64,000 nucleotides of DNA from an uncultured Gammaproteobacteria bacterium. GTDB lineage: Bacteria; Pseudomonadota; Gammaproteobacteria; UBA4575. Made by a program: the position numbers and the translations under genes. Under the pieces are notes generated by a model. It ran no database searches. It saw nothing but the letters and a program-made list of their open reading frames with translations, and was not told the DNA's origin. The stretch spans positions 1,443,653 to 1,507,652 of the forward strand of contig OX638335.1 of the NCBI GenBank assembly GCA_951812785.1, given 5' to 3'. Positions 23,501 through 45,488 of this stretch are shown piece by piece; positions within the stretch are counted from its first letter, which is position 1; every line of letters starts with the position of its first letter.

Positions 23501-26500
23501 TGTACAGCAACTTTCTAAGCTGCCTGTGCGGCAGTAAACGGGCAACTTAGCAACACGTAACACAGTGCAAGTTTCTAAGCTGCCTGTGCGGCAGTAAACT
23601 GGCCAAGAATCGACAACCATCATCTTGATGTTTTCTAAGCTGCCTGTGCGGCAGTAAACAAACAGAAATCAATTTTGAGAAAAATCGCTGATTTCTAAGC
23701 TGCCTGTGCGGCAGTAAACCAAAATTGATGGGAAGTCTAGACCTTCTTGAATTTCTAAGCTGCCTGTGCGGCAGTAAACCGCCTTGTTTTGACATCATCC
23801 AATCGATGATATTTCTAAGCTGCCTGTGCGGCAGTAAACTACCCGGCTCACATCTTGGATCTTTTAGATCGTTTCTAAGCTGCCTGTGCGGCAGTAAACT
23901 CGGAAATACTCAACAAAATGAACAACTTACATTTCTAAGCTGCCTGTGCGGCAGTAAACAGCGAATGCTTCAGACCAGTCAGTATTCGGCTTTTCTAAGC
24001 TGCCTGTGCGGCAGTAAACTGATGCTGTGTTCAAACCCAGTTAGCAAGCATTTTCTAAGCTGCCTGTGCGGCAGTAAACTAAAATTCCCTGTTACTCCAA
24101 ATCCTTTGACTTTTCTAAGCTGCCTGTGCGGCAGTAAACGCATGGACACATAATCAGTCTTATGAGTGTTATTTCTAAGCTGCCTGTGCGGCAGTAAACA
24201 TGCTAGGTTACAACGACCAGAATATTTAGGCTTTCTAAGCTGCCTGTGCGGCAGTAAACCTCTTGCAATACGTTGATCGTCAGTTTCCACCTTTCTAAGC
24301 TGCCTGTGCGGCAGTAAACTGTAACTCTTCAATTTCGCATAATTGATTCATTTTCTAAGCTGCCTGTGCGGCAGTAAACTAAAATTCCCTGTTACTCCAA
24401 ATCCTTTGACTTTTCTAAGCTGCCTGTGCGGCAGTAAACTCTGTCTGATTCGATCAATCCCGAAATCCACATTTCTAAGCTGCCTGTGCGGCAGTAAACA
24501 TAGTCGTTTAGCGAGAGGAGCGATTTGGGGATTTCTAAGCTGCCTGTGCGGCAGTAAACCTAGATATGTGGGTCGCCAAGCTCTGCCATCTTTTCTAAGC
24601 TGCCTGTGCGGCAGTAAACTATCGCAATACAAACTACTCACTACGGATCTTTTTCTAAGCTGCCTGTGCGGCAGTAAACTGAAACTGCCTGTAACGCCAA
24701 AACCTTTGACGTTTCTAAGCTGCCTGTGCGGCAGTAAACAGCAATCGGCGGAGTAGTCTCGACAGTCCTTGTTTCTAAGCTGCCTGTGCGGCAGTAAACT
24801 TGATGTTGCAACTGGATCTGCATTTAATCACTTTCTAAGCTGCCTGTGCGGCAGTAAACGCGCTAACAAATAGCGCTGGGATTTTTTGATCGTTTCTAAG
24901 CTGCCTGTGCGGCAGTAAACTATGATTTAGATCTCACACATGCTGAAAGTATTTTCTAAGCTGCCTGTGCGGCAGTAAACGGCAAATGCGAGTGACCAGG
25001 ATGTGTTTGGTTTTTCTAAGCTGCCTGTGCGGCAGTAAACCGAGTGCTATCAGATCAAGTCGATAAAAATCATTTCTAAGCTGCCTGTGCGGCAGTAAAC
25101 AACCCTGGCTATCCTAACGTTTTCGCTCGTGCTTTCTAAGCTGCCTGTGCGGCAGTAAACTTTCCCTTTGTAATATGTCCAATGCCGCTTCGTTTCTAAG
25201 CTGCCTGTGCGGCAGTAAACATGAATATAGGAGAGCTCAATCATCAATTGCTTTTCTAAGCTGCCTGTGCGGCAGTAAACCAGTTAATGCACGGCCGCCA
25301 GCTTCAACGTAATTTCTAAGCTGCCTGTGCGGCAGTAAACAATCAATTTTGAGGAGTATTGCGCATGAACGCTTTCTAAGCTGCCTGTGCGGCAGTAAAC
25401 CAGATGATCCTGCATTAACGATCTACGCGTTATTTCTAAGCTGCCTGTGCGGCAGTAAACTGCCACCATCTTTTGACTTTAGATGCTGTGCGTTTCTAAG
25501 CTGCCTGTGCGGCAGTAAACGGCTTCTTCTCTGACAAATTGACTTGCCAGGGTTTCTAAGCTGCCTGTGCGGCAGTAAACAGTGAGCATGGTCATATAAT
25601 ATCACTCATGTCTTTCTAAGCTGCCTGTGCGGCAGTAAACGTGGTGCAGTGGCGGATGAGGTTGAGTAAGTATTTCTAAGCTGCCTGTGCGGCAGTAAAC
25701 AGCCCGGACAGTCCGGCCCATCTCCGACAACCTTTCTAAGCTGCCTGTGCGGCAGTAAACATTCTGCTCCTAAATAATATCTGATTTTTGTTTTTCTAAG
25801 CTGCCTGTGCGGCAGTAAACATGATCGATGCGCAGTTAGCAAGACTGCGCGCTTTCTAAGCTGCCTGTGCGGCAGTAAACTACATATAGGTGAAATCAAT
25901 TCACATTCCCTCTTTCTAAGCTGCCTGTGCGGCAGTAAACTGTCTCATGTTGTACTGCAAGATTTCTGGCGCTTTCTAAGCTGCCTGTGCGGCAGTAAAC
26001 TTCGTGCTCGTCGTCTTGTCAGCAAATCAACTTTTCTAAGCTGCCTGTGCGGCAGTAAACGTTGTTGATCGTCGCTCTTGGATGCGACGATCTTTCTAAG
26101 CTGCCTGTGCGGCAGTAAACGAAGGTCTTGCAATTGATATATGCACGCTCTCTTTCTAAGCTGCCTGTGCGGCAGTAAACGCAGCACTGCTACTGGTGCG
26201 AGATAACTAAGTTTTCTAAGCTGCCTGTGCGGCAGTAAACTTTTTATCTCAAGCGCCGATGCTGCGCGGGCATTTCTAAGCTGCCTGTGCGGCAGTAAAC
26301 TAAGCTGTAAGACGAGGAAATAATTATGTCATTTTCTAAGCTGCCTGTGCGGCAGTAAACGAATATTCCTTCGGAACGTGTCACCGCATTTATTTCTAAG
26401 CTGCCTGTGCGGCAGTAAACGTGCTGTGACAGCATTAACAATTAACAATAATTTTCTAAGCTGCCTGTGCGGCAGTAAACTTTTTATCTCAAGCGCCGAT

Positions 26501-29500
26501 GCTGCGCGGGCATTTCTAAGCTGCCTGTGCGGCAGTAAACTAAGCTGTAAGACGAGGAAATAATTATGTCATTTTCTAAGCTGCCTGTGCGGCAGTAAAC
26601 GAATATTCCTTCGGAACGTGTCACCGCATTTATTTCTAAGCTGCCTGTGCGGCAGTAAACGTGCTGTGACAGCATTAACAATTAACAATAATTTTCTAAG
26701 CTGCCTGTGCGGCAGTAAACTAAATTTAGCAATGAGAATTGCAGCACTTGTTTTTCTAAGCTGCCTGTGCGGCAGTAAACGACAATTTGTCGAGCAAGCG
26801 TATGAAGAAATCTTTCTAAGCTGCCTGTGCGGCAGTAAACTCATTGCGCCTGCAACTGCGATTGCAATTGCATTTCTAAGCTGCCTGTGCGGCAGTAAAC
26901 AGCAGCCAGAAATGTCAGGGATTGCGTTATTTTTTCTAAGCTGCCTGTGCGGCAGTAAACCAAATGGCAATGTTGGTAAAATGTTCGGTCATTTTCTAAG
27001 CTGCCTGTGCGGCAGTAAACTTTGAAAAACTCAGGTATTAAAGCAAAAAATTTTTCTAAGCTGCCTGTGCGGCAGTAAACCGATCGAGGCGGTGGTAGAG
27101 ATGAAACAGGAGTTTCTAAGCTGCCTGTGCGGCAGTAAACGGACTAATGAGACCAGCAGCTACTAATTCGCTTTTCTAAGCTGCCTGTGCGGCAGTAAAC
27201 TTGCAAAGTGGTTTACTGCTGCACAGTTAGACTTTCTAAGCTGCCTGTGCGGCAGTAAACATAACAACACAAGAAGTAATGAAATTAGTAGTTTTCTAAG
27301 CTGCCTGTGCGGCAGTAAACTTGAAGTCAAATTTACATTGATGCCGGAAAGCTTTCTAAGCTGCCTGTGCGGCAGTAAACTGAAATTTCCGGTAACGCCG
27401 AAGCCTTTGACGTTTCTAAGCTGCCTGTGCGGCAGTAAACATATAATTCTGACATTATTTTTTACCTCGTCTTTTCTAAGCTGCCTGTGCGGCAGTAAAC
27501 GCACGCTTTCAATTCATAAACAGACAATGCACTTTCTAAGCTGCCTGTGCGGCAGTAAACCAACAGACAGTCAGACAGTCGCAGATCAATATTTTCTAAG
27601 CTGCCTGTGCGGCAGTAAACGTACGTCTTTTTTACACAAACTATTATCAACGTTTCTAAGCTGCCTGTGCGGCAGTAAACTCGACTTCCATTGTTTGCAT
27701 TCGAATTTTGTCTTTCTAAGCTGCCTGTGCGGCAGTAAACGCCGAGCGGTAACGATACTGCCGGACCCCTCTTTTCTAAGCTGCCTGTGCGGCAGTAAAC
27801 ATAAAATTAATTACATGCGCAAACACTATAATTTTCTAAGCTGCCTGTGCGGCAGTAAACACACGCTTTCGATTCATAAACAGACAATGCATTTTCTAAG
27901 CTGCCTGTGCGGCAGTAAACATAAAATTAATTACATGCGCAAACACTATAATTTTCTAAGCTGCCTGTGCGGCAGTAAACTTTTTGGTTAGCACCAAGAG
28001 CCCGCGCACGCGTTTCTAAGCTGCCTGTGCGGCAGTAAACATGTTGTCATTGATGAAAATACACATGTTTTTTTTCTAAGCTGCCTGTGCGGCAGTAAAC
28101 AAACACTCGCGACTATCGCGGCTCCGCCAACATTTCTAAGCTGCCTGTGCGGCAGTAAACGAACAAAATTAGGTATCAAAGGCTTGCTAGAATTTCTAAG
28201 CTGCCTGTGCGGCAGTAAACTCGATTTTGATGTTGCGAAGTTGCCGCCTCTTTTTCTAAGCTGCCTGTGCGGCAGTAAACCTCCGACTGATGGCGGCATG
28301 CCAAGATAATCTTTTCTAAGCTGCCTGTGCGGCAGTAAACTGTCGCGATACTAGTGATTCTAGAACGTAGATTTTCTAAGCTGCCTGTGCGGCAGTAAAC
28401 TGTCGCGATACTAGTGATTCTAGAACGTAGATTTTCTAAGCTGCCTGTGCGGCAGTAAACAGGTAATCTTCCTGCATTATTGCCATGGATTCTTTCTAAG
28501 CTGCCTGTGCGGCAGTAAACGCAACTGGTACAAATAACCACAAATATTGAATTTTCTAAGCTGCCTGTGCGGCAGTAAACTGAAATTGGTGCAGGAGTTG
28601 GGCGAAGAGATGTTTCTAAGCTGCCTGTGCGGCAGTAAACGCAACTGGTACAAATAACCACAAATATTGAGTTTTCTAAGCTGCCTGTGCGGCAGTAAAC
28701 ATACTACAGATAACAAAAATTAATAAGCAACTTTTCTAAGCTGCCTGTGCGGCAGTAAACCGTGTGTTTTTTTGTTTTGTTGTGACTGATTTTTTCTAAG
28801 CTGCCTGTGCGGCAGTAAACGGAACTGCAGCATATCGGACAACAACCAATTCTTTCTAAGCTGCCTGTGCGGCAGTAAACCGGCACAACTGACAACGGAC
28901 TTGAGCTTGTGTTTTCTAAGCTGCCTGTGCGGCAGTAAACGCTTATTACCCTGGCCCGCGGGTAGATCTTCGTTTCTAAGCTGCCTGTGCGGCAGTAAAC
29001 TATCAAATGCAGAATCAGTATCGCCGCCGAGATTTCTAAGCTGCCTGTGCGGCAGTAAACATGTTGCGATTACTAATGTTGCATCGCAACAGTTTCTAAG
29101 CTGCCTGTGCGGCAGTAAACTGCTCTTCGTTCTCTGTCTTTTCGTTCTTCTGTTTCTAAGCTGCCTGTGCGGCAGTAAACTTTCTTGACGCATTTCTACA
29201 ACAGCTTCAACCTTTCTAAGCTGCCTGTGCGGCAGTAAACATGAAATTAGTGGTGGAATTAGGAGAAGAAATTTTCTAAGCTGCCTGTGCGGCAGTAAAC
29301 GCAATTAGTACAAATAACCACAGATATAACATTTTCTAAGCTGCCTGTGCGGCAGTAAACCAGGAAGGGATTTTTTTGACCAGCCCGTTGGCTTTCTAAG
29401 CTGCCTGTGCGGCAGTAAACTGAGTTGGGGAGCAATCGGCGGCGCTATAGGTTTTCTAAGCTGCCTGTGCGGCAGTAAACGTAACTTAGATTTTGTAGTT

Positions 29501-32500
29501 CAAAAACGAGGCTTTCTAAGCTGCCTGTGCGGCAGTAAACACACGCTTTCAGTACATAAACAAACGATGCACTTTCTAAGCTGCCTGTGCGGCAGTAAAC
29601 TTTTAGAAGGATGTGGATTATGTGTTTTAATCTTTCTAAGCTGCCTGTGCGGCAGTAAACGCACAAAATTAGGTATTGCTGGTCTATTAGAATTTCTAAG
29701 CTGCCTGTGCGGCAGTAAACTATTCGAGATTCAGGTGTTTCTTTTGACCTGATTTCTAAGCTGCCTGTGCGGCAGTAAACGACGCGCGTTAACTGCGCAA
29801 GAAGAATTGGTCTTTCTAAGCTGCCTGTGCGGCAGTAAACTTGTCATCGCGCTGCGCAAAGCGCGAGTGGTTTTTCTAAGCTGCCTGTGCGGCAGTAAAC
29901 GTCGTTCGAGTGCTTCAGCACCAGCAACACCCTTTCTAAGCTGCCTGTGCGGCAGTAAACACAATGTCAATAATCTCTGTACGACAATTAACTTTCTAAG
30001 CTGCCTGTGCGGCAGTAAACTGAAATTAGTGGTAGAATTAGGTGAAGAACTGTTTCTAAGCTGCCTGTGCGGCAGTAAACTCTGTCTGATTCGATCAATT
30101 CCGAAGTCCACATTTCTAAGCTGCCTGTGCGGCAGTAAACTCTGTCTGATTCGATCAATTCCGAAGTCCACATTTCTAAGCTGCCTGTGCGGCAGTAAAC
30201 TCTGTCTGATTCGATCAATTCCGAAGTCCACATTTCTAAGCTGCCTGTGCGGCAGTAAACACAGTGTGCATCTCATAACTAAGCAAGACACTTTTCTAAG
30301 CTGCCTGTGCGGCAGTAAACATAGTCGTTTAGCGAGAGGAGTAATTTGGGGATTTCTAAGCTGCCTGTGCGGCAGTAAACAGATGCTCAAAAATATGCAA
30401 CTTAGTAAGTTATTTCTAAGCTGCCTGTGCGGCAGTAAACGCGGTACTGCTGCTGTACGCGTGTAATCAACTTTTCTAAGCTGCCTGTGCGGCAGTAAAC
30501 ATTCAGCCTATCAACACATTACAACAGCAATCTTTCTAAGCTGCCTGTGCGGCAGTAAACGGACTTTACCGCGCGGACGAAAGCGATAGCGCCTTTCTAA
30601 GCTGCCTGTGCGGCAGTAAACTACCACAATGTGACCTTCATACTAACGGGGCATTTCTAAGCTGCCTGTGCGGCAGTAAACAAGATTTACATTAGCATTA
30701 CCAACGATCTGTTTTTCTAAGCTGCCTGTGCGGCAGTAAACCAAATGATCCTGTTACTCCGAAGCCCTTGACTTTTCTAAGCTGCCTGTGCGGCAGTAAA
30801 CGAAATCTAGATTTCGTAGTTCAAAGACGCGGATTTCTAAGCTGCCTGTGCGGCAGTAAACGTTACTGGTTAAGACTCTTTCAACAGATTGTTTTTCTAA
30901 GCTGCCTGTGCGGCAGTAAACGCCCCGAAAGTGGTCGATAACGACAAAAGTGCTTTCTAAGCTGCCTGTGCGGCAGTAAACGTCTATTACGTACCTAGAC
31001 TTGCCCCGAAAGTTTTCTAAGCTGCCTGTGCGGCAGTAAACTCAATACAAACAGAAAACGAATGAAACCAAAGTTTCTAAGCTGCCTGTGCGGCAGTAAA
31101 CGAATCTGCTTGGTTGCGTACGAGACGCGCTGATTTCTAAGCTGCCTGTGCGGCAGTAAACTCCCTGCGCGATTTCGTTGCCTGATTGATCCTTTTCTAA
31201 GCTGCCTGTGCGGCAGTAAACTAATGTTTGTCGTTTTGCTTGCGTCATACTGCTTTCTAAGCTGCCTGTGCGGCAGTAAACTCCGCGCAAAGATTTTCAC
31301 GTCGTGCCGCGCGTTTCTAAGCTGCCTGTGCGGCAGTAAACATTTTGAAAATGTCAAAAAAGGTGATTTGGGCTTTCTAAGCTGCCTGTGCGGCAGTAAA
31401 CCAATACCGCGCTCTGTATTCAAACTGGATCATTTTCTAAGCTGCCTGTGCGGCAGTAAACATAGCTAAACTTGGTAATGTAAATGAAGCTCATTTCTAA
31501 GCTGCCTGTGCGGCAGTAAACTTAGATGGTCAGTCGAAGACGCAAAAGCGGCTTTTCTAAGCTGCCTGTGCGGCAGTAAACGTGTCAGAATATATGGAAA
31601 AATTTGGCCGCTTTTTCTAAGCTGCCTGTGCGGCAGTAAACCTAGCAAGCCTTTAATACCTAACTTCGTCCGATTTCTAAGCTGCCTGTGCGGCAGTAAA
31701 CATATCACGAAGCAGCATTGGACATATTGGTAATTTCTAAGCTGCCTGTGCGGCAGTAAACTTTTAATGGCATTTAAAGATTCATTCTTGTCATTTCTAA
31801 GCTGCCTGTGCGGCAGTAAACACAATTAGTAAGAATAACCACAAATATAGAGTTTTCTAAGCTGCCTGTGCGGCAGTAAACTGGCAAGTCTATATGTAGA
31901 AGAAGAAGCGAAATTTCTAAGCTGCCTGTGCGGCAGTAAACTTAGTCAGTACAAACTACTTACGACCGATCTTTTTCTAAGCTGCCTGTGCGGCAGTAAA
32001 CATTACACAATCACGATTATGCAACTGTAGAGATTTCTAAGCTGCCTGTGCGGCAGTAAACTTTCTATAACAGCTTCAACTGAAGCAGTGTCATTTCTAA
32101 GCTGCCTGTGCGGCAGTAAACGCTATAGAACTAGAACAAGAAGAATTAGAATTTTTCTAAGCTGCCTGTGCGGCAGTAAACCAACTAGAGAGTGATACTT
32201 AAAAAATTAGGGTTTTCTAAGCTGCCTGTGCGGCAGTAAACTTTGTTATTGTCGCTTTCTGATGCGACTGGATTTTCTAAGCTGCCTGTGCGGCAGTAAA
32301 CATATCATCAATTATTTACAGTTAGGCACAGATTTTCTAAGCTGCCTGTGCGGCAGTAAACGTAACGAGACTGCTGGACCGCGCTGCGCCCAGTTTCTAA
32401 GCTGCCTGTGCGGCAGTAAACCATAGCACAGCACTAATACGGTGCACGCCGATTTTCTAAGCTGCCTGTGCGGCAGTAAACGAAATCTCGATTTCGTAGT

Positions 32501-34822
32501 TCAGAAGCGCGGCTTTCTAAGCTGCCTGTGCGGCAGTAAACTTGCAAAGTGGTTCACAGCAGCGCAGTTAGATTTTCTAAGCTGCCTGTGCGGCAGTAAA
32601 CAGCAACCGGAAATGTCAGGGATCGCGTTATTCTTTCTAAGCTGCCTGTGCGGCAGTAAACGAGTCGACAGCGCCAGATTTTGGTGCTGTCGATTTCTAA
32701 GCTGCCTGTGCGGCAGTAAACATGAAAGATTGGAAAGCAGCGGTACGAACCTTTTCTAAGCTGCCTGTGCGGCAGTAAACGGATTTCAAATCCCAGATAC
32801 GGCGGCAGTCGATTTCTAAGCTGCCTGTGCGGCAGTAAACCTATGATTATCGGATAAATTTTCATCATTATATTTCTAAGCTGCCTGTGCGGCAGTAAAC
32901 GGCATTTCAATGGGCTCGGAAGGCATGAAATATTTCTAAGCTGCCTGTGCGGCAGTAAACGTAACGAGACTGCTGGACCGCGCTGCGCCCAGTTTCTAAG
33001 CTGCCTGTGCGGCAGTAAACCATAGCACAGCACTAATACGGTGCACGCCGATTTTCTAAGCTGCCTGTGCGGCAGTAAACTGATGCCTGAGAGCGGGGCT
33101 GTTGTACCAAGTTTTCTAAGCTGCCTGTGCGGCAGTAAACACGTTCTCCCGCATACCCGTCAACTTCACCACTTTCTAAGCTGCCTGTGCGGCAGTAAAC
33201 TAAGAAAGAAGCAATGAGTGAGGCGGCTCGCCTTTCTAAGCTGCCTGTGCGGCAGTAAACTCGTGCCGATTAGTTGCACAGAAGTACTGCCTTTTCTAAG
33301 CTGCCTGTGCGGCAGTAAACAACTACTTAGATATGATAAGCGATTAGATAAATTTCTAAGCTGCCTGTGCGGCAGTAAACCCCGTCAAGTTATTATAACT
33401 GGTCCGCGCGGCTTTCTAAGCTGCCTGTGCGGCAGTAAACACTATGAGAGACAAAAAGAATTTGCGCAGAGCTTTTCTAAGCTGCCTGTGCGGCAGTAAA
33501 CGCCCGTCAAAACTTTGTGCAATATAAGGCATCTTTCTAAGCTGCCTGTGCGGCAGTAAACCGAAAAAAACAGATACACGTCTGTATTATATGTTTCTAA
33601 GCTGCCTGTGCGGCAGTAAACGTATCGTGCGCCGTATCTGGCGCGAGCCTCTTTTTCTAAGCTGCCTGTGCGGCAGTAAACTGAGCGCATGTTTACCGCC
33701 ACCTAAGTATTCTTTTCTAAGCTGCCTGTGCGGCAGTAAACGTGCAGTAGTGCCAAGCGGCAACGAAACTGCATTTCTAAGCTGCCTGTGCGGCAGTAAA
33801 CTGAGTGCGTGTTTGCCTCCGCCAAGGTACTCATTTCTAAGCTGCCTGTGCGGCAGTAAACCCAAAACTGGATGCATGAGCGGAGCAGCCATGTTTCTAA
33901 GCTGCCTGTGCGGCAGTAAACCAGTTAGTAAAAATGGTATGACATTCGGTTGCTTTCTAAGCTGCCTGTGCGGCAGTAAACACGCGGTCGAATGTCCAAG
34001 TATAGAGTCGCCATTTCTAAGCTGCCTGTGCGGCAGTAAACTTCTGCGTTTTGCCGCATCGATGACATCTGCGTTTCTAAGCTGCCTGTGCGGCAGTAAA
34101 CGCTTTGTTGAGCCTTTTTTTCGGCCAGCACCTTTTCTAAGCTGCCTGTGCGGCAGTAAACGGCTCTCAAATACGAGATAACACATCAATTGATTTCTAA
34201 GCTGCCTGTGCGGCAGTAAACCTAGCAACTTGCTTGCAAGTTGCTAGCCTAGAGTTTCTAAGCTGCCTGTGCGGCAGTAAACATGGCTAGTAATAAGATA
34301 CGAGCTCGTCGACTTTTCTAAGCTGCCTGTGCGGCAGTAAACCGGAGATAATTATGAGTTGGGGTAGTGCAATATTTCTAAGCTGCCTGTGCGGCAGTAA
34401 ACTGTGGATAGACGGCTATTTTTTAGCGACCGATTTTCTAAGCTGCCTGTGCGGCAGTAAACATGGTTTAGAGCAAGTTACAGATCGCGACTTATTTCTA
34501 AGCTGCCTGTGCGGCAGTAAACTCTGTCTGATTCGATCGATGCCAAAATCCACATTTCTAAGCTGCCTGTGCGGCAGTAAACTTAGCGAGAGGAGCAATT
34601 TGGGGCGGATTGGCTTTCTAAGCTGCCTGTGCGGCAGTAAACAAACGCAGAATGTCAGCGCGACAATACAAGCATTTCTAAGCTGCCTGTGCGGCAGTAA
34701 ACACCAGGGAGGATTGACCAAAAGATCGAGACAATTTCTAAGCTGCCTGTGCGGCAGTAAACCTTAAACACTACTATTATAGTGTTTGCGCATATTTCTA
34801 AGCTGCCTGTGCGGCAGTAAAC
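20575..34822 (-). CRISPR. type I-F CRISPR array, ~238 repeats and 237 spacers, transcribed right to left
   Basis: 28-nt repeat (minus-strand reading GTTTACTGCCGCACAGGCAGCTTAGAAA) on a strict 60-nt period with mostly 32-nt spacers. The distal repeat at 20575-20602 carries one substitution. The leader-proximal repeat ends at 34822, next to cas6f. Confidence 0.98.
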
Positions 34823-34952
34823 ACCAAGTATAATGCGCAAAAAAACAGCTACAACAAACACTTAACTCCAATCGATATAAAATATCAATGAAATCAAGGC
34901 TTGTTGTAACTCATTGATTTTATTGAGCGTTAAAGAACGGTAAAAATAAAGG
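34823..34952 (-). promoter_or_regulatory. CRISPR leader (AT-rich) between cas6f and the first repeat
   Basis: 130-bp AT-rich segment directly upstream of the leader-proximal repeat in array orientation. A TATACT -10-like box sits about 10 nt before the repeat. Confidence 0.6.
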
Positions 34953-35504
34953 TCAAAACCAGGGGACGGTGGCAATTTTGGATAATCCAAATAAGTCAAA
35001 TTTTCCCGTGATGGGCTGACTGGTTAAATCACTAAATTTAATGTAGCGCCTGTGTTTATGTTTGTTCGATCCACTGATGAGTTCGATATAGGGATTCTCT
35101 AATCCTTGGGTAAACATCTTTGCACGGTATTGTTTAACCTCTTCCTCTGTGATTGAACCACGTTTTATCAATCGATTCAGTTTGGCTTGGCTCATGTTGG
35201 CTTGCACTCGGCTAACGGTGCGGTATTGAACGTTATCCGGTACAGGTTGAATCGCTGACACCTGACAGTAACCGCTCATGCCGCCAACCCAGTTTTTATC
35301 CTGTAATTGAGTCAATGCAGTTTGTGTTCCATGTATGCGCAACTGATCGCCCAACGTCTTTTGATAGGCTGGAAAGCTCACGCCAATGTCGGTGCTGTTC
35401 AGGTCACACAGGGCTTTGTGGAATTTGGCGTACAACGAATCCATAAGTATCCTGGATCGGAATTCCGGGTCGGGTAATAACGTGATATTCAAGTAGTTAT
35501 CCAT
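34953..35504 (-). CDS. cas6f: Cas6f (Csy4) crRNA endoribonuclease
   Basis: 183 aa; MDNYLNITLLPDPEF...GLSKIATVPWF matches the Cas6f N- and C-terminal signatures. Last gene of the operon, next to the leader. Confidence 0.93.
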   Translation of the reverse strand: MDNYLNITLLPDPEFRSRILMDSLYAKFHKALCDLNSTDIGVSFPAYQKTLGDQLRIHGTQTALTQLQDKNWVGGMSGYCQVSAIQPVPDNVQYRTVSRVQANMSQAKLNRLIKRGSITEEEVKQYRAKMFTQGLENPYIELISGSNKHKHRRYIKFSDLTSQPITGKFDLFGLSKIATVPWF

Positions 35505-35512: not shown

Positions 35513-36538
35513 CTATTTATCACTTTCACCGAATACACCGCCACGTACCAATACCGCCATCACGTAATGTTCATCTTCCACGCGTTCCAATGCACCACCA
35601 CGCGCCCAATGATCAAAAAAGCTATAGAAGTCTTGTTTTTCTGCGGGTGTACGGAAGGCTTTACCCTGATTGGTCACTGCACCATAGGGTTCGATAGCGA
35701 TTGGGCCAACCGAAGCTTCCGGGTCAGCAAACTCTCCATACCAAGTATCAATGGTACGGATGGCATTACCTATTTTTTGCGAGTGCATGGCAGCAATATT
35801 ATTTACATGGTAAAGAATTTTGCTTTTCTCACCTTTACCTTTATCCAGCACGAGTTCTTCGCTGGGATAGACATCTTGTGCTTTACCCACTTTGGCATAG
35901 CAGGTGATATCGAGCATAAGAAAATCATCTTCACTGGCTAATGCTGTTGCAATGCGTTCTGCCAAGATAGTAACTTCCGCATCACTTGCTGACAGGTCAC
36001 GCGGATTAAACTCCAAAGCATTAAATTGCCAACTCTGCTCTGCACCCTGGTTTAAGGCGCTGACTTCGACCTGGATGTTTTCGGCTCCAAAGCGGTTGCG
36101 CCAAAGGAATCGTGCATTGGCGATGTTCAAGGCATAACGCTTTGCCAGTTCTCTCATACCCCGTGTTTGCAGATAGCCATTGACTGCTGCTTGGTAGCTT
36201 TGTTTGAATAAGGCATTGTTGCAGGCTGAAGGCTGTTGCAAGCCACCCAATACTTTTAAGGTAAAGTGTAATTTAAGCGTGTCTTGTTCTGTACCCAAAG
36301 CACAGGCATCTATCGTTTGTAAATTGGGTTTTTCAACTTCTGCGTTTAATTTTTGCGGGTCTTTTTTTATCGCCTCCTTTAGGCGGTTAGCGATCGTCCC
36401 CCGCACTGATTTCTCTTGCAGTTTCAGCGGTGTCACTTCATTTTTATTATCCCAACTTGTGCCATACATATAGCCATCACTGGGTACCAGTTTTTTTTCA
36501 AATGCGAGTACAGATGCAATATTGTCTTTCTTAGCCAT
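35513..36538 (-). CDS. cas7f: Cas7f (Csy3) Cascade backbone subunit
   Basis: 341 aa, in the conserved I-F gene order. Confidence 0.9.
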   Translation of the reverse strand: MAKKDNIASVLAFEKKLVPSDGYMYGTSWDNKNEVTPLKLQEKSVRGTIANRLKEAIKKDPQKLNAEVEKPNLQTIDACALGTEQDTLKLHFTLKVLGGLQQPSACNNALFKQSYQAAVNGYLQTRGMRELAKRYALNIANARFLWRNRFGAENIQVEVSALNQGAEQSWQFNALEFNPRDLSASDAEVTILAERIATALASEDDFLMLDITCYAKVGKAQDVYPSEELVLDKGKGEKSKILYHVNNIAAMHSQKIGNAIRTIDTWYGEFADPEASVGPIAIEPYGAVTNQGKAFRTPAEKQDFYSFFDHWARGGALERVEDEHYVMAVLVRGGVFGESDK

Positions 36539-36556: not shown

Positions 36557-37489
36557 TTAAAAATCAAATTCACTTGACGGATCTTTTGCAACCGTATTAA
36601 GGGCTACACATTGGTAAAAGTTACTAGCCTTATCAACTTGATAGCACCACAACATGTCGCTTATTGATTCAAAGCGATGAGGCATTTTGAATTCACCTAA
36701 GGTCACCAGGCTTTCAGCGAAGCAATGTGGTTGATCTGGGTCACGTTGGTTTTTGGCTTGGCCTAATTCACTAATACCGTGGAAGCCTGTAGCAATGGGT
36801 ACAATCCAGCCTAGGGGCTTGTCAGTTTGGCTTTTGCGGCGTTTTTTCCATAACACGCCATCTTTTGTTTGTTCGCAACGATGATGAATTGCCACATAGT
36901 CAATTAACGCAGCCATAGCATCATCCTGGCCTTGCCCCATCGCTTCAATCATTAGGTCGCGGCGCTCAATCAGCACATAACCTGGCATAATTTTTCGCGT
37001 AAACCGACGTAAATCCTCTTCGTTGTTATCTTCAAGTACAAAAATAGCAGGTGGGCTAAAGCTTTGAATATCCCCACCCGCCATTTTTATTTTGCTGTTG
37101 AGTAAATGGCTTATTTGCGCTTTTATTGCATCTTCTTGCTCCTGGCTTATCCCCTGCAATTCCAGTAATAAAGACACCTCAAGATGGCAACGAGCTTCCT
37201 CAATAAACGATGAACGCGATCCGGTTTTATCTAAGGGGTTACCGGTACCTATAATGGATGACACAAAATCATTTGTTCCACGATAGGTTTGTAAGTTCAT
37301 TTGGTGGCTCACCACACCGGTTGCCGTCACCTTTACATCTATGCCACCCTCATTTAATTTACGTTGTAGGGCGTGAGTCGCCCCTAACCATGCGGTCATC
37401 GCGGGAAAGCCAATGGTAAAAGGGCTGGAGAGGGCATTAGCGTTATGAATGTGAAGATGTGGAATCAGCAGTATCTTTTTATAGCTCAT
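36557..37489 (-). CDS. cas5f: Cas5f (Csy2)
   Basis: 310 aa; overlaps cas8f stop as ATGA; I-F order. Confidence 0.88.
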   Translation of the reverse strand: MSYKKILLIPHLHIHNANALSSPFTIGFPAMTAWLGATHALQRKLNEGGIDVKVTATGVVSHQMNLQTYRGTNDFVSSIIGTGNPLDKTGSRSSFIEEARCHLEVSLLLELQGISQEQEDAIKAQISHLLNSKIKMAGGDIQSFSPPAIFVLEDNNEEDLRRFTRKIMPGYVLIERRDLMIEAMGQGQDDAMAALIDYVAIHHRCEQTKDGVLWKKRRKSQTDKPLGWIVPIATGFHGISELGQAKNQRDPDQPHCFAESLVTLGEFKMPHRFESISDMLWCYQVDKASNFYQCVALNTVAKDPSSEFDF

Positions 37490-38802
37490 CGTAACGCCTC
37501 CTTGTGTTTCACGACCTGCTTATGGATATGCTTAAATTCGCCGTCTGAAAATATAAAAGTTTTTTTGCCGAGCAATTTTTCATAACCATTAAAGATAAAT
37601 TTAGCGATGTCAGTGCATAGCATATCTAACCAGTCATTTTCATCTTCTCGTTGCGCTTCATTGGCCATACAGAGCCATATTTTTTGAGTAGGGTTTAACT
37701 GGCTAGTATCTGGGTTGTATTGCGCTTCGCTTACGCTTCTTACTCGCCACATTCTTTCAATAATTCGATCCATGATGGCCTGGTAATATTCATCGCGCGC
37801 ACTCCGGATATGCCTATTATTTTTGTGGTTAAGAAATATTAAGTCATGCAAGGCATAAAACAAATCTCTACATTGAAAATAACTGAACGATTGGCTAAAA
37901 AAGTCCACTGTTGGAAAGTGGATGTCACGCTTGATTAATTTGGGTGGCTCGCTCGGTAGCAGATGCACTTTGCCACCGTTTTGATTGTTCAAAACGCTAA
38001 TATTCTGCGGCTTGGTACCGCCATAACCCATCGTGGTTAAGTTGGCCAGTTGCTTATAACCCCCTATATACATTTCATTGTTCTTTTCACATTTCGCAAA
38101 GTCTCTTGCGCCCGCATCCGGACCTATATACATTTCATTGTTCTTTTCACAAGTTCTGGCAATTTTTGTTTCTTCAGAAAAACGGATGGTATCAATCCTT
38201 TTTCTCAGCTCGAATACTATGCCAGATGCAGACAGTATCGATAATTGGTGGTAGCCATTTTCTACAGGAAAGTAGACCTGTTTAATTTTGGAACTCGTTA
38301 TGCTATCAGCATCGCTATTCGTCATGGCTAAAAAGCCTTCTTTTAAAGTGCTGTATGACTCTGCTTTAATCTTGAGAAGTTGTTGTGCTAAATCAGAATC
38401 TTGCTCGATGTGGCTAAGTAAGGTTTGCCCATCTTGCATATTAAGCGTCAAAAATTTATAGACATCTAATGCGGCAGCATTGCCCAGTGCATCGGCCTCC
38501 ACAACAACGTTGCCACTGCGTAAATAGCCATCGTTGCTTGCTTGGCTATCGGCAATAATTGATGAGGCATAGCCATTCTTATTTTTACGTGAACTAGGAT
38601 GGCTGAAAGTACATGGATGCGTGGATATGGACATTTGCCCCGCTCGCTTGGCGGCATTTGGCAACCAATTTTCCAAACTAAATTGCTCGGAGCACTCCTG
38701 TTCCTTAGCCTGGATCATCGTTTCATCTGCACCAGCATGAAGATTTTTCTTTAACCAAGCCGCTTTACGCTTGTCAAAGAATTCAGCTATTACTTTCTCC
38801 AT
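37486..38802 (-). CDS. cas8f: Cas8f (Csy1) large subunit
   Basis: 438 aa, first gene of the csy operon. Contains an internal 29-bp perfect direct repeat (see findings). Confidence 0.88.
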   Translation of the reverse strand: MEKVIAEFFDKRKAAWLKKNLHAGADETMIQAKEQECSEQFSLENWLPNAAKRAGQMSISTHPCTFSHPSSRKNKNGYASSIIADSQASNDGYLRSGNVVVEADALGNAAALDVYKFLTLNMQDGQTLLSHIEQDSDLAQQLLKIKAESYSTLKEGFLAMTNSDADSITSSKIKQVYFPVENGYHQLSILSASGIVFELRKRIDTIRFSEETKIARTCEKNNEMYIGPDAGARDFAKCEKNNEMYIGGYKQLANLTTMGYGGTKPQNISVLNNQNGGKVHLLPSEPPKLIKRDIHFPTVDFFSQSFSYFQCRDLFYALHDLIFLNHKNNRHIRSARDEYYQAIMDRIIERMWRVRSVSEAQYNPDTSQLNPTQKIWLCMANEAQREDENDWLDMLCTDIAKFIFNGYEKLLGKKTFIFSDGEFKHIHKQVVKHKEALR

Positions 38803-39013
38803 CTACATTATCCTTTTTACGCTAATAATTTTAGCCAAAAGCCAGTTATAAAAACTTTGCAGAAGCATCTTTAGGTGATGATACTTGCTGGTTGAATCCT
38901 GAGACATCTCATCAAGAACGAGTACTTCTTGCTGGCGAGAAACCGTTAGTGTCTCTTTTCTCACATACCGCTTAGCCATATTTTTTATACCCTACTTTAT
39001 CATTGATAGGTCA

Positions 39014-39042
39014 AGCATAAGCATAAAGATCAATATTTTCAA
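39014..39042 (-). promoter_or_regulatory. candidate sigma70 promoter for the csy operon (TTGAAA-17-TATGCT)
   Basis: -35 TTGAAA (complement of 39037-39042), 17-nt spacer, -10 TATGCT (complement of 39014-39019). It directly abuts the CC PAM of the psi-spacer target. Confidence 0.45.
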
Positions 39043-39077
39043 CCATTTAACTATTGGTATAAAATACTCCAACTACT
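39043..39077 (+). promoter_or_regulatory. CC PAM plus seed-matched target site of the adjacent psi-spacer; overlaps an extended -10 (TGgTATAAA, 39055-39063) that faces the mini-CRISPR
   Basis: Positions 1-14 of the site match psi-spacer 39096-39128 except at positions 6 and 12; 22/33 overall; CC immediately 5'. Confidence 0.55.
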
Positions 39078-39156
39078 GAAAAAGCAGCTTAGAAAATTTA
39101 CCTATTCGTGGTTATTTATCCATTTACTGCTTACTGCCGCATAGGCAGCTTGAACC
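39068..39156 (+). ncRNA. degenerate mini-CRISPR (psiR1-psiS-psiR2), candidate crRNA-like regulator of the CreR/CreA type
   Basis: psiR1 at 39068-39095 matches 19/28 but ends in a perfect GCAGCTTAGAAA 5' handle. 33-nt psi-spacer at 39096-39128. psiR2 at 39129-39156 matches 22/28 and keeps the intact hairpin CTGCCGCATAGGCAG. Orientation is opposite to the cas genes. Confidence 0.6.
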
Positions 39157-39182
39157 ATCTACCTTGATCTCCAGTAGGTGGT

Positions 39183-42100
39183 TCACACTCTCACCAATCC
39201 GAATTGGTCGTTATATTTATATTTAGCGCTTTCATCGTGCCAAAAACTTAACTCGCCATAGCGCAACGATGCCCTACGCATACTCATATCTTGTGCGTCT
39301 GCCATACTTGCTATTTCTGCTTCAAAGTCGCGTTGTAGCCATAGCCGTTTGCTTGCTTCTGTAGCCAACTGCACACGATCAATACCAAGCGGTAGTTCAC
39401 GTGGCACAGGAAAGCCTTTTTCGTTTTTTTCACAAAAGGTACATGCCTGCTTATTTTCATCAAAGGCCAAAAACACTTTCAAGCTCGGCGGAGATTTTCT
39501 AAACGACACTATGTGTTGCGGGTATGCCGTCAAAAACCAGGCTTCACGCAAATAGCCTTGTAGCTGAGCAGGGCCGTTACCGTCTCGTCCATAGTTAGCC
39601 AATAACTTGCAAATAACATAATGTTCTAAATCTGCCAATTGTTTTTTAGGCTGTAGATCTTTTGATTTTTGGATACGTGCAATAGCATCTACACGCTGTA
39701 ATAAGGCATCCGCATCCAGCAAGTCATTCAAGTTGTGGCTTGCCAACCTGATTTGGTCTTCAAAACCTGGCCTGTTAAATACTTTACCGTTTTCAAGGTG
39801 TTTATCGCGTACCCCCCGCCAGTTGTATTGCAGCAAACTGATGTTAGGCACTTCCACGCCGATTTTACGATGACGACGCACACGTCCTGCCAATTGGATA
39901 ATTGAACGATACGAAGATGGTTCCACAACTGCCCAGTCAAAATCGTGGTCGCGACCAACCTCTTCTACGGGAGTTGCCACTAACACAAACAGCACATGTT
40001 TAACCTGTGGTTCGGTTCGCTTTATATGCTCAAGGTGTTGACGAATAACAGTGTTTAGAAAAGCTTTGGGTTGTTCATCTATGTCTTCTTTACGTTTTAA
40101 TACTTGGCCTAGGTGCTGTTCTTGTTTATGGCGCATCAGCAAGACTTGCTGACTGTGGTACGGCATCGTTCTTATCTGAACGTCTGCTGGCAGATCCATC
40201 TTTAGCAAGTAACGGGCTAAGGCTATGCAGGGTTGAATATTCGCCATGCGCACCACGCCAAACGACACCGCCAATTGGCTTTGTTGATCAACCATGTGAT
40301 GGTGCTGATGTTTAGTGAGAACACTATCAGTAATGATTTTAAAATAGGCTTGTTGTTTACTCGCTATAACGTTTTCATCGTTAGGGCTATGGGTAAAATC
40401 AGCAAAGATTTGTTCACAAGGAGTAATGTCAGCTTTGCGCTTAACCGGTTGTTTGACTAATTTAGCAACGCGTTTTTCGACAAATTTCACGTGTTCACTG
40501 CGGTAAGCAGGTATTGCATCCCGCACTTGCAAGCCATGATTACTTGCGACGACTGTGTTAAATTCATCTATCCATGCACAGCCCACCGTCGCACTGGCAT
40601 CACGGCTTTTACAGTAGATTAGCCATCCATCTCGGTACGCTTTGAAGTAGCCTTCAGCTAAATCAGGCGTAATGGTTGCCGAGGAGATCATCACCTTTCG
40701 ACCTAACATACCTGCTAAGTGAATGAGGCGTCCAATAGCGACTAAATCCTCACCGGTAAAATCGTCAACTTCATCAATTACTAGATCAGAAGACATTAAC
40801 CGTAGAGTAGGCAAAATATAGCGCCCCCCACGCTTAGTCTCAGTTGCCGCCATAAGATGGTCGATGGTGCAGGCTAATACCGGCGCATAGAGGAATTTTT
40901 TATCACGTTGTTCACGCAGTACGGTAGTCATACCTTCTTCAGGAATAGCGCAATCGTAATCGACTTCTTCATCCAACAATGTTTCTTGTGACTCTGAACC
41001 ACTTGCTTCAAAACTCAGTTCTTCTGTCTCAGTTTTTGCTTGCTGATGTAACGCCATGACGGCACGCGAGCCGATCAGTACCGCCAGTTCGGTTGCATCC
41101 AAACCCACTCGCTCACGGTATTCATCACCTGTTTGTAATGTGAGGGTACGTAAGCCCAGAGCCAAAATAAAACGCAGGCTATTCCCATCATTTGATACAG
41201 CCTGCATCACTTTGGCATTGGCAAAGGTTTTACCGCAGCCCGTACTTGCCATATTCACAGCGAAAAAACCTTGCTTTTGCGTATTATTCTTGCGCCAATG
41301 TTTAATGTTATCTACGGCTTTATCTTGCCAACGAAATTCGCCAGGGCTTAGTTTTTTCAATGCTGTGATGTCTTGCGCTATGGGTGGTTCAGCTTCAAAT
41401 GCCGGTAGCAAATGTGCAGTGTTTAAACCATGCCTTGCAACACCAACCAAATGCTCATCCAGCTTTTGCTTTAAAGCTTTAGTTTTAAAATCGGTATTGG
41501 CAAATAAGCCGAGCTTGTCTTGCCATTTTTTATCGGCATTTTGTGATGAGTAATAATGATCACCCAGCATTACGCATAACCGCGCATAATTTAATACTGA
41601 TCGGTAACTGCCATCATTGAGTGATTGCAATACCTGCGATTCACAAGCTAGTAAGCGTTGTGACCATTTTTTAATTTGCTTTAACCAAGGTTGCGAAGCG
41701 CTGAGTAGCCCATTAGGAAAATTAAAACATTGTTCAACCCGCTGCTTATATTCAGCCTGATCATAGTTGTTTTCGTAACCCCACTGCTGAGTAACCAGGC
41801 ATAAAACATTATCAATGTTAGGACAGCATTCAGCCCGCATATCCACATCTTTATTTAGCGGTAAACGATGATGGGAGACAACCAGCCAAGCCACTAGTTT
41901 AGCTATCGGTGGTAAATTTTTTAGCGGATTAGTCTGCTGTTTACTGGCAATGGCTTTTATCTTGGCTTCATCAATGTCGCCTTTTGCTAAGGTCTCAAGC
42001 CAACCACTATCGTTTACATTGTTTGTATCGCCTTGATGCATTTGAATAAGTGCATTCAGCAATAAACACGAAATCCATTCATGCCGAATAGGGTCACCTT

Positions 42101-42545
42101 TAAAGCCCATTTTATTCTTAGGCTTCAATTTTTCCTGGAACAGTTGGCTGGCTTTACCCCAATCATGCAAAAGCGCGGCAATAGCCACCAAGGCTTTAAT
42201 TAAGGGTAAATACGCCCAGTCATTTTCAATATGAGAATTTAATAAATTTCGCCTCGTCGTGTTAACGGGCACGGCTCCTTCGCGATCAAATTTCTGACGA
42301 TTACCCACCACCCAAACCAACTCACTACGCGCACGGCTGCGTATCCAATGACAGCTTACCGCAGTGTTTTTACTGGCAGTTTTTCTAAGTAATTTTTTTA
42401 CTGCCAGTAAGCCTTCCTGGGTGATAATTGTTTGCCAGGTGTTATCGCCAATGCGGTTGGCGAAGGCATCAAGCACACGGCGACTGCGGGCGTGGGCTTT
42501 TTTTTCGCATTGACTAACAAAGGTAACCATCATGACCAAAGACAC
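39183..42545 (-). CDS. cas3: Cas2-Cas3 fusion (Cas3f) helicase-nuclease
   Basis: 1120 aa with an N-terminal Cas2 domain (..VSQCEKKAHARSRRVLDAFA..HWIRSRARSELVWVVGN..), HD nuclease and SF2 helicase. The ORF-track start is GTG at 42545; ATG codons 4-5 codons downstream are more likely the real start. Confidence 0.93.
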   Translation of the reverse strand: MSLVMMVTFVSQCEKKAHARSRRVLDAFANRIGDNTWQTIITQEGLLAVKKLLRKTASKNTAVSCHWIRSRARSELVWVVGNRQKFDREGAVPVNTTRRNLLNSHIENDWAYLPLIKALVAIAALLHDWGKASQLFQEKLKPKNKMGFKGDPIRHEWISCLLLNALIQMHQGDTNNVNDSGWLETLAKGDIDEAKIKAIASKQQTNPLKNLPPIAKLVAWLVVSHHRLPLNKDVDMRAECCPNIDNVLCLVTQQWGYENNYDQAEYKQRVEQCFNFPNGLLSASQPWLKQIKKWSQRLLACESQVLQSLNDGSYRSVLNYARLCVMLGDHYYSSQNADKKWQDKLGLFANTDFKTKALKQKLDEHLVGVARHGLNTAHLLPAFEAEPPIAQDITALKKLSPGEFRWQDKAVDNIKHWRKNNTQKQGFFAVNMASTGCGKTFANAKVMQAVSNDGNSLRFILALGLRTLTLQTGDEYRERVGLDATELAVLIGSRAVMALHQQAKTETEELSFEASGSESQETLLDEEVDYDCAIPEEGMTTVLREQRDKKFLYAPVLACTIDHLMAATETKRGGRYILPTLRLMSSDLVIDEVDDFTGEDLVAIGRLIHLAGMLGRKVMISSATITPDLAEGYFKAYRDGWLIYCKSRDASATVGCAWIDEFNTVVASNHGLQVRDAIPAYRSEHVKFVEKRVAKLVKQPVKRKADITPCEQIFADFTHSPNDENVIASKQQAYFKIITDSVLTKHQHHHMVDQQSQLAVSFGVVRMANIQPCIALARYLLKMDLPADVQIRTMPYHSQQVLLMRHKQEQHLGQVLKRKEDIDEQPKAFLNTVIRQHLEHIKRTEPQVKHVLFVLVATPVEEVGRDHDFDWAVVEPSSYRSIIQLAGRVRRHRKIGVEVPNISLLQYNWRGVRDKHLENGKVFNRPGFEDQIRLASHNLNDLLDADALLQRVDAIARIQKSKDLQPKKQLADLEHYVICKLLANYGRDGNGPAQLQGYLREAWFLTAYPQHIVSFRKSPPSLKVFLAFDENKQACTFCEKNEKGFPVPRELPLGIDRVQLATEASKRLWLQRDFEAEIASMADAQDMSMRRASLRYGELSFWHDESAKYKYNDQFGLVRV

Positions 42546-42699
42546 CCGTTACCCAGATAGGTTAGAATCCGGTTGTCGTCTGGCCAAGAATCGACAACCA
42601 TCATCTTGATGTTTACAGCACAAACGAAATGCTGCATCCAAAGGGATTTGCGAGTGACATTGCTTACCACACAATGTTTCAGCTCACCCCTTAGGCGAC

Positions 42700-42728
42700 A
42701 TATTAGAAGCAATCTAAAAATATTTCAA
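42700..42728 (-). promoter_or_regulatory. candidate sigma70 promoter for cas2-3 (TTGAAA-17-TAATAT)
   Basis: -35 TTGAAA (complement of 42723-42728), 17-nt spacer, -10 TAATAT (complement of 42700-42705). It is separated by one nucleotide from the CC PAM of the psi-spacer target. Confidence 0.45.
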
Positions 42729-42730
42729 TC

Positions 42731-42752
42731 CCTATAAAGAGTTATTTTAGCA
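42731..42752 (+). promoter_or_regulatory. CC PAM plus seed-matched target of psi-spacer 42800-42819
   Basis: CC at 42731-42732; the next 10 nt (tataaagagt) match the psi-spacer perfectly; 15/20 overall. Confidence 0.55.
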
Positions 42753-42771
42753 AATAATCTGCTATACTTTG

Positions 42772-42847
42772 AATATCTGCCGTATAGGCAGCTTAGAAAT
42801 ATAAAGAGTCGTTTTACACGTTCACTGCCGCACAGGCAGCTTATTGA
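42772..42847 (+). ncRNA. degenerate mini-CRISPR with a 20-nt psi-spacer, second candidate CreR/CreA-like crRNA-like gene
   Basis: psiR1' at 42772-42799 (22/28) keeps a perfect hairpin plus handle CTGCCGTATAGGCAGCTTAGAAA. psi-spacer tataaagagtcgttttacac at 42800-42819. psiR2' at 42820-42847 is GTTCACTGCCGCACAGGCAG with an intact hairpin, then degenerates to cttattga. Sits in a 345-bp gap between cas1 and cas2-3, in the opposite orientation. Confidence 0.6.
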
Positions 42848-42890
42848 TTCGGCAGAGATTATGGTTGTATGCATATTTGGCCTGCTATAG

Positions 42891-43829: not shown

Positions 43830-44052
43830 GATATTAGGTGATGTTCATGCTATTGTTGAACCTGATATTACATTGTTACAATTTTTTATCAAACCATTAT
43901 GCTTCCCAATATCCAGAATATAGAGAGCACCAAAATATAGCTCTTTTAGAAATAATGATATTAGGCCACCTCAAAGAGACAGAAAATATTGCCAGGACTT
44001 AAGGACTTACCTAGACTTTATGGTTGGTAGAGCAACATTTTATCGGTGGAAT

Positions 44053-44140
44053 TTGAATGATCGCGCAGGCGATGAAAACTGCAGAAACGCGCAAGCAAAA
44101 TCTTATTGAAAATTGAATGATCGCGCAGGCGATGAAAACT
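44053..44140 (+). repeat. orphan two-repeat CRISPR-like unit with a non-I-F repeat
   Basis: Identical 28-nt repeats TTGAATGATCGCGCAGGCGATGAAAACT at 44053-44080 and 44113-44140 flank a 32-nt spacer at 44081-44112. The repeat carries a 5-bp stem ATCGC/GCGAT with a 4-nt loop and a GAAAACT tail. Confidence 0.5.
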
Positions 44141-44151
44141 TTTTAAAAAAT

Positions 44152-45427: not shown

Positions 45428-45488
45428 TTTAATGCTTCCTTGTACAACACTAGAGCAAATAAATACTGTATTAAATAGAGGGAATTAA

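Follow-up and report, generated by a model that had tools for sequence, protein, structure and literature searches.

In CRISPR-Cas systems of type I-F, the side of the spacer that carries the crRNA 5' handle must face a 5'-CC on the non-target strand, a PAM written in an older notation as GG 3' of the protospacer. Chromosomal targeting by the type I-F system of Pectobacterium was reportedly found to be lethal by Vercoe et al. (2013), GG-flanked targets leading to death or to the deletion of a genomic island. According to Stern et al. (2010, Trends Genet), self-targeting spacers are reportedly tolerated where the PAM is missing, the repeats are degraded or the cas genes are inactive. Flips, in which a prespacer enters the array in reverse orientation, were reportedly recorded in the type I-E system of E. 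coli by Shmakov et al. (2014). Self-matching spacers devoid of a PAM are a known phenomenon, as are acquisitions that were flipped or slipped.

For native type I-F adaptation in Pectobacterium, 90-93% of the protospacers carry GG, whereas flipped spacers, with CC at the 5' end, account for less than 0.5%, and 40-47% of these keep the exact CC (PMC5059440). In Acinetobacter, an I-F CreTA module has been placed in the cas3-csy1 spacer region (PMC10097628).

The DNA considered here, hereafter the window, is a stretch of 64 kb carrying a type I-F locus in which spacer 211 is identical to a segment of an IS3-family insertion sequence (IS) located in the same window. As in the cases of Stern et al., an exact match to a resident mobile element is associated with a target having no functional PAM, but in this locus the cas genes and the repeats look intact. 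The system shares its subtype and probably its PAM logic with that of Vercoe et al., which shows the cost of a competent self-spacer, whereas for spacer 211 a consequence of this kind is neither expected nor seen.

The type I-F locus and the orientation of its array

Beside the array, a type I-F (I-F1) gene set is found, including cas1, a fused cas2-3, csy1, csy2, csy3 and cas6f (Table 1). The matches of the cas genes to Pfam and NCBIfam cover the models over their full length, and csy1-4 are intact, with Pfam E-values for Cas_Csy4, Cas_Csy3, Cas_Csy2 and Cas_Csy1 ranging from 1e-62 to 1e-151. The start codon of cas2-3 is probably the ATG at 42533. The 28-nt repeat reads TTTCTAAGCTGCCTGTGCGGCAGTAAAC on the plus strand and GTTTACTGCCGCACAGGCAGCTTAGAAA on the minus strand, the latter being the type I-F repeat of the CRISPR-DR4 type with the 3' handle CTTAGAAA. 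Identical repeats amount to 235 of the 238, and the leader-proximal spacers are unique. Most spacers are 32 nt long (230/237), and five are of 33 nt.

Table 1. Coordinates of the features of the window related to spacer 211 and its match
Feature	Coordinates	Strand	Description
Degraded IS3-family insertion sequence	17322-18536	+	NF033516, 360 bits on repaired OrfAB
orfA (HTH_Tnp_1)	17384-17683	+	Premature in-frame TGA at 17507-17509; A6G motif at 17644-17650
CC, PAM complement	17567-17568	+	Abuts the 5' side of the protospacer; bases 1-2 of the Pro62 codon (CCT)
Protospacer	17569-17600	+	Starts with base 3 of the Pro62 codon and ends with base 1 of the Leu73 codon (P-KKEAMSEAAR-L)
PAM-side flank TCAGG	17601-17605	+	TC (17601-17602) at the PAM position; GG at 17604-17605, offset by 3 nt
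CRISPR array	20575-34822	-	238 repeats, 237 spacers; degenerate repeats at the low-coordinate (trailer) end
Two type I-F repeats flanking spacer 211	33173-33200 and 33233-33260	-	28 nt each, both perfect; CRISPR-DR4, 46.8 bits
Spacer 211	33201-33232	-	No. 211 of 237 from the trailer, 27th from the leader; crRNA sense 5'-GGCGAGCCGCCTCACTCATTGCTTCTTTCTTA-3'
Leader	34823-34952	-	130 bp from the cas6f stop codon to the first repeat
cas6f/csy4	34953-35504	-	Pfam Cas_Csy4
csy3	35513-36538	-	Pfam Cas_Csy3
csy2	36557-37489	-	Pfam Cas_Csy2
csy1	37486-38802	-	Pfam Cas_Csy1
cas2-3 (Cas3f), full length	39183-42545	-	TIGR02562 over positions 1-1109 of 1110, 976 bits
cas1 (Cas1f), full length	42891-43829	-	TIGR03637 over positions 1-306 of 307, 499 bits

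Five independent lines of evidence fix the orientation of the array and its PAM side. The Rfam model CRISPR-DR4 (RF01317) matches every repeat unit on the minus strand, with 46.8 bits for a gathering score of 35. The cas operon is also carried by the minus strand, with the 130-bp leader lying beside cas6f, and degenerate repeats are restricted to the far, low-coordinate end. Transcription of the array thus proceeds from the minus strand. The fourth line is the depletion of G at the last base of the plus-strand form of the spacers (27 of the 217 unique 32-nt spacers), a bias known for the PAM-adjacent spacer base of type I-F systems (PMC5059440). Finally, overlaps between spacers show GG directly after the plus-strand form of spacers 66, 163, 112 and 174, whereas three of the eight internal overlaps lack it, displaying AG, GA and TA for three other spacers, from diverged targets. 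In window coordinates, the PAM expected of type I-F corresponds to a GG directly following the plus-strand form of the spacer. Comparison of the entire array with INPHARED phages and PLSDB plasmids yielded no external protospacer for any spacer, nor did degenerate patterns built from multi-variant spacer families match IMG/VR or the JGI metagenomes, and the PAM of this system therefore rests on the internal overlaps and on general knowledge of type I-F.

An exact match between spacer 211 and a resident IS3-family element

Exactly two copies of the 32-mer TAAGAAAGAAGCAATGAGTGAGGCGGCTCGCC are present in the window, one at 17569-17600 and the other at 33201-33232, 15.6 kb apart and both on the plus strand. 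All 32 bases are identical and, as 100 shuffles lead to an expectation of zero matches, chance is ruled out as the cause of this identity. The copy at 33201-33232 forms exactly one spacer enclosed between two perfect 28-nt repeats, whereas the other one belongs to the orfA gene of a degraded IS, as a sequence-only reading of this DNA had already pointed out. That reading also derived the spacer from the IS, which holds. Indeed, the 32 nt encode in frame a conserved segment of OrfA, so that the IS is the source of the sequence and the array its recipient. A transfer in the opposite direction, by recombination of array sequence into the IS, or a transfer unrelated to adaptation, has virtually no probability: nothing speaks for it beyond the identity itself, the encoded peptide PKKEAMSEAARL is in frame and common to distant IS3 homologues, and no repeat sequence accompanies the protospacer in the IS.

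The element belongs to the IS3 family, with an orfA encoding an HTH_Tnp_1 domain, an orfB encoding an rve domain, and the -1 frameshift motif AAAAAAG at 17644-17650. It is bounded by 38-nt imperfect terminal inverted repeats (17322-17359 and 18499-18536), and its ends read TGAAGTG...CACTTCA, consistent with the TG...CA termini of the family. No target-site duplication of 3-4 bp was found at its flanks, which read CAC versus CTC, or CCC versus GGC, according to the placement of the ends. Among public data, the closest relative that is intact is L001, a 1221-bp Logan contig with 74% nucleotide identity, which shares the left end and keeps the AAAAAAG motif. Compared with L001, orfB of the window copy has lost 38 nt near 17808 and 2 nt near 18225. 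With these two deletions and the TGA within orfA, the transposase is not intact and the element is not autonomous.

Other copies of the IS are known at the protein level, from the catalogue of the 2,158,385-bp NCBI/ENA contig to which the window belongs. Two further orfB stubs of 216 aa, P0001 and P0122, share 99% identity and the starting Met with the window copy, and two distinct orfA stubs of 41 aa, P0259 and P0260, both terminate at the premature stop of the window copy. The IS is thus present in the 2.16-Mb genome at least three times. The near-identical orfB products of the catalogue are all truncated stubs, and none of its OrfA proteins is more than 76% identical to the window OrfA. Whether intact copies are depleted from the strain, a check proposed along with the sequence-only reading, is thereby partly answered, intact copies being absent from the protein catalogue. 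As a common truncation point is found in several stubs, the lesions appear to be older than the spread of the copies.

Flanks of the protospacer and origin of the PAM mismatch

On the plus strand, the protospacer is preceded directly by CC and followed by TCAGG. In the sense of the crRNA, GG is thus found directly 3' of the protospacer and GA directly 5' of it, i.e., no canonical PAM stands on the crRNA 5' side. The sequence-only reading was right in placing the PAM side at the plus-strand 3' flank, reading TC and not GG, and in stating that this copy is not interference-competent, insofar as TC at the PAM position means that it is not a canonical target. In concluding that the CRISPR system has targeted this mobile DNA, it overlooked the exact CC at 17567-17568, which points to a flipped or slipped spacer. 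This PAM complement abuts the PAM-distal end of the protospacer, as is characteristic of a flip. An exact 5' CC is encountered by chance in 3.3% of random 32-mers taken from the IS.

Spacer 211 is thus likely to have been derived from the IS3 element by capture at a normal PAM, followed by integration in reverse orientation, which would render it inert. According to this mechanism, Cas1 and Cas2-3 would have taken a prespacer from DNA of this IS3 lineage, capturing it at the CC of the plus strand, a normal PAM, and would have put it reversed into the array. The crRNA transcribed from the minus strand would then read the protospacer from the wrong end, and Cascade, which needs 5'-CC on the non-target strand, would meet GA instead. 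Without a PAM, Cascade would leave the target closed and Cas2-3 would not be recruited, leaving the spacer inert, although in type I-F systems priming can still be set off by targets whose PAM departs from the consensus. The mismatch would date from the integration of the spacer, being neither an escape mutation nor a feature specific to the window copy. As donor, one of the chromosomal copies is conceivable, as is a mobile element, since lost, on which this IS was carried.

The codons surrounding the protospacer leave little freedom to its flanks. The TC at the PAM position corresponds to positions 2-3 of the Leu73 codon (CTC), and Leu73 is invariant in an alignment of 121 OrfA homologues, whereas Pro62, whose codon provides the CC, is kept in at least 90% of them. 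A GG at the PAM position would need CGG (Arg) in place of Leu73. Therefore, GG is not expected at this position in any functional copy of this IS family, nor would the TC mismatch be specific to the copy of the window. L001 itself shows the flanks CC and TA, with eight mismatches inside the protospacer. A spacer flipped or slipped in this way has probably never been interference-competent against any copy of the IS.

An escape mutation from GG to TC, by which the non-permissive PAM would have protected the resident copy, was considered and rejected, Leu73 being invariant in the 121 homologues. Unlike the missing PAMs discussed by Stern et al., the one observed here is imposed by codons conserved in the IS, and it is therefore not an escape mutation. 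The same constraint bears on the origin put forward by the sequence-only reading, in which the spacer was acquired from, and active against, a GG-flanked copy carried by a plasmid or a phage, the resident copy being spared by its flank or by its inactivation. Such a course of events would agree with the non-GG resident flank and with the general knowledge that IS elements travel on plasmids and phages, but it is extremely improbable. Indeed, it demands an Arg codon at the invariant Leu73, and the nearest relative has TA at the PAM position. Moreover, no match was found in PLSDB, INPHARED, the GTDB representatives, IMG/VR or the JGI metagenomes: a search for the donor with a degenerate pattern allowing synonymous changes found none in the GTDB representative genomes, IMG/VR and the JGI metagenomes, and nothing close appeared when the IS was compared with PLSDB in distant mode or the whole array with INPHARED and PLSDB. 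As for the proposal that inactivation of the IS offered an escape route, type I-F interference is directed at DNA irrespective of the state of the gene, and inactivation cannot serve as a shield.

The TCAGG flank calls for another explanation to be weighed, a -3 slip, in which the prespacer would have been captured in normal orientation at the GG of 17604-17605 and cut 3 nt short on the PAM side. A flip would ideally leave no consensus PAM within 3 nt of the nominal PAM side, whereas this GG stands there. In Pectobacterium, almost all the non-GG protospacers of the type I-F system have GG within ±3 nt, but slips are mostly of ±1 nt and minus slips are prone to yield spacers that deviate from the proper length (PMC5059440), whereas spacer 211 is of exactly 32 nt. 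Furthermore, GG is found somewhere within ±3 nt for 27% of random 32-mers of the IS, far more often than an exact 5' CC, although a GG at the exact 3-nt offset is limited to 5.5%. Flip and slip were termed ambiguous in such cases by Staals et al. (PMC5059440), and for spacer 211 the two are formally ambiguous, the GG at 17604-17605 preventing a clean separation. Using rough priors that were assumed rather than measured, the flip is given the larger share of the probability, the slip is considered rather unlikely, and a small remainder is left for the other explanations. A slipped spacer would be inert too, and whichever of both events took place, spacer 211 would be non-canonical from its integration onward.

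The frequency of flips is compatible with their presence in this array. With a rate below 0.5%, about one flipped spacer is expected among 237, and a single 32-nt spacer out of 237 fits the rate determined for P. atrosepticum (PMC5059440). The flips and slips of that bacterium likewise display a random-looking dinucleotide at the PAM position and CC on the opposite side (Staals et al. 2016, PMC5059440). Unlike that work, the present case relates to a single natural spacer, for which flip and -3 slip are not statistically separable, and the donor is also present in the host chromosome. Because of this presence, spacer 211 probably owes its survival to a selection that acts against self-spacers able to interfere. 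With a competent spacer, several sites of the chromosome would be hit, and therefore only an inert one could persist. A flip would thus account for the fact that an exact match to an element of at least three copies can sit beside intact-looking cas genes.

Other self-matches, mini-CRISPRs and meaning of spacer 211

Degraded copies of four IS families are found in the window, in which three self-matches are present in total, all of them devoid of a canonical PAM. Spacer 236 resembles an IS481-family pseudogene with three mismatches, this family having at least ten copies in the genome. Spacer 51 matches exactly 42581-42612, just upstream of cas2-3 in a mini-CRISPR region, with no PAM in either orientation. 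The possibility that 42581-42612 represents a buried fragment of array was rejected, because no more than 11/28 and 6/28 positions of its flanks agree with the repeat. Among the 1131 spacers of 45 related I-F loci, no genuine self-match was found within about 20 kb per locus, the sole matches being to other spacers inside the own array of one locus (L040), and no spacer of these loci matched those of the window.

Self-matches that all lack a PAM are what a purging of competent self-spacers would leave. They also bear on the idea that tolerance is independent of the PAM, the system being switched off, inhibited by an anti-CRISPR encoded elsewhere or tightly autorepressed. Two CreA/CreR-like mini-CRISPRs inside the cas operon, suggesting regulated expression, and the fact that 64 kb of the 2.16-Mb genome are visible lend it some weight. 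A silent system is nonetheless improbable, given that all cas genes are of full length, that the repeats are almost uniform with unique leader-proximal spacers, and that the three self-matches lack a canonical PAM, as a purging of PAM-competent self-spacers would predict. No anti-CRISPR-like gene was recognised in the 64-kb window.

The two mini-CRISPRs of the cas operon are antisense and CreA-like, each with a CC-flanked partial target nearby, and units of a comparable kind are found again in related loci. They are similar to the I-F CreTA module of Acinetobacter (PMC10097628) and more notable than the self-match of spacer 211.

Two of the newest 27 spacers match IS families. One might imagine that adaptation preferentially samples extrachromosomal transposition intermediates of IS3- and IS481-type elements, the flipped or slipped survivors persisting as harmless priming "sentinels". 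If this highly improbable scheme were true, such sentinels could prime a rapid adaptation against any plasmid or phage that brings this IS into the cell.

The self-match of spacer 211 is most likely ordinary and harmless, and it has little significance beyond this genome. It provides a clean natural example that an exact self-match need imply neither autoimmunity nor a dead CRISPR system, the spacer being so oriented or positioned that no copy of the IS would present a PAM to it, and the conserved codons of the IS indicating that this absence dates from integration. For surveys of self-targeting, both flanks and both orientations should be checked before escape mutations, anti-CRISPRs or external donors are invoked.

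Mini-CRISPRs within the cas operon

The intergenic region between cas1 and cas2-3 harbours a mini-CRISPR composed of two repeat units (psiR) flanking a psi-spacer, and a second mini-CRISPR is found between cas2-3 and csy1. The former displays the CreA/CreR architecture. Its 20-nt psi-spacer matches a CC-flanked partial target at 15 of 20 positions, the first 10 being contiguous. This partial target overlaps a predicted minus-strand promoter and is adjoined by a second predicted one, both promoters being directed toward cas2-3. The published I-F CreTA position is the cas3-csy1 spacer region of Acinetobacter (PMC10097628). The location of the first mini-CRISPR, at the cas1 to cas2-3 junction, differs from that of the published CreA/CreR, which stands at the cas3-csy1 site. 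The second one occupies the same position as the Acinetobacter I-F CreTA. The partial target of the second mini-CRISPR, also CC-flanked, is matched by the psi-spacer at 22 of 33 positions, including 12 of the 14 at the start.

Positions of the mini-CRISPR components between the cas genes
Feature	Position	Orientation	Location or description
Mini-CRISPR with partial target	42731-42847	antisense to cas genes	inside the cas1 to cas2-3 intergenic region, 42534-42890
psiR1 CTGCCGTATAGGCAGCTTAGAAA	42777-42799	+	first unit, cas1 to cas2-3 mini-CRISPR
psi-spacer TATAAAGAGTCGTTTTACAC, 20 nt	42800-42819	+	between psiR1 and psiR2, cas1 to cas2-3 mini-CRISPR
psiR2 GTTCACTGCCGCACAGGCAGCTT	42820-42842	+	last unit, cas1 to cas2-3 mini-CRISPR
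Partial target of 20-nt psi-spacer	42731-42752		
Predicted promoter, -10 element	42749-42744	minus strand	
Second predicted promoter	42728-42700		
Second mini-CRISPR with partial target	39043-39156	antisense to cas genes	inside the cas2-3 to csy1 intergenic region, 38803-39182
psiR1, degenerate	39068-39095		cas2-3 to csy1 mini-CRISPR
psi-spacer, 33 nt	39096-39128		cas2-3 to csy1 mini-CRISPR
psiR2 GCTTACTGCCGCATAGGCAGCTTGAACC	39129-39156		cas2-3 to csy1 mini-CRISPR
Partial target of 33-nt psi-spacer	39043-39077		

Units similar to the second mini-CRISPR are found after cas2-3 in the related I-F loci L050, L067, L074, and L076, and as single units in L031 and L069. Comparable units are located after cas1 in L018, L068, and L070.

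Array structure and other self-matching spacers

Some features of the array (20575-34822) point to rearrangement within it and to the same elements having been targeted repeatedly. Spacers 95-98, numbered from the trailer, are duplicated as 99-102, and spacers 197-198 as 207-208, while spacers 159, 160, and 161 are identical. Families of nearly identical spacers are numerous, each of them corresponding to one site in diverged targets. A low-complexity spacer of 28 nt is located at 22224-22251.

Spacer 51 (23600-23631) perfectly matches positions 42581-42612, a site that precedes the start codon of cas2-3 by about 50-80 nt. Neither CC nor GG occurs within 3 nt of either end of this match, and therefore neither a flip nor a slip accounts for its origin. 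The sequence flanking the match is not repeat-like. Spacer 236 (34703-34734), the second from the leader, matches positions 11937-11968 with 3 mismatches. Its target is an IS481-family transposase pseudogene on the minus strand (approximately 11.8-12.8 kb), in which a CC sits 2 nt off the PAM position. At least 10 distinct copies of this IS481 family are present in the same genome, most of them being equally truncated.

Regions flanking the CRISPR-Cas locus and the IS3 lineage

Upstream of cas1, a low-GC block (44000-49100, 37-38%) includes WYL-domain, pentapeptide-repeat, DUF2726 (nuclease-like), and weakly HEPN-like ORFs together with tRNA-Leu, tRNA-Cys, and tRNA-Gly genes; it may constitute an accessory defence or regulatory islet. 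On the other side, the region extending from a tRNA cluster (Thr, Gly, Tyr) to the array trailer (10300-20560) mostly consists of gene remnants. An IS1595 fragment, the IS481 pseudogene, and the IS3 element are found there, along with pieces of the type I restriction genes hsdS and hsdR, a HigA-like ORF that is truncated, and an IS4-family transposase that is split.

The premature stop that closes the truncated orfA of the IS3 element (17384-17509 in the window) is common to different IS3 copies of the genome, as seen in the catalogued orfA stubs P0259 and P0260, and the orfB stubs of different copies (P0001 and P0122) begin at the same Met. These shared features suggest that the IS3 lineage spread, or was homogenised, after becoming defective. 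The element may be non-autonomous and mobilised in trans.
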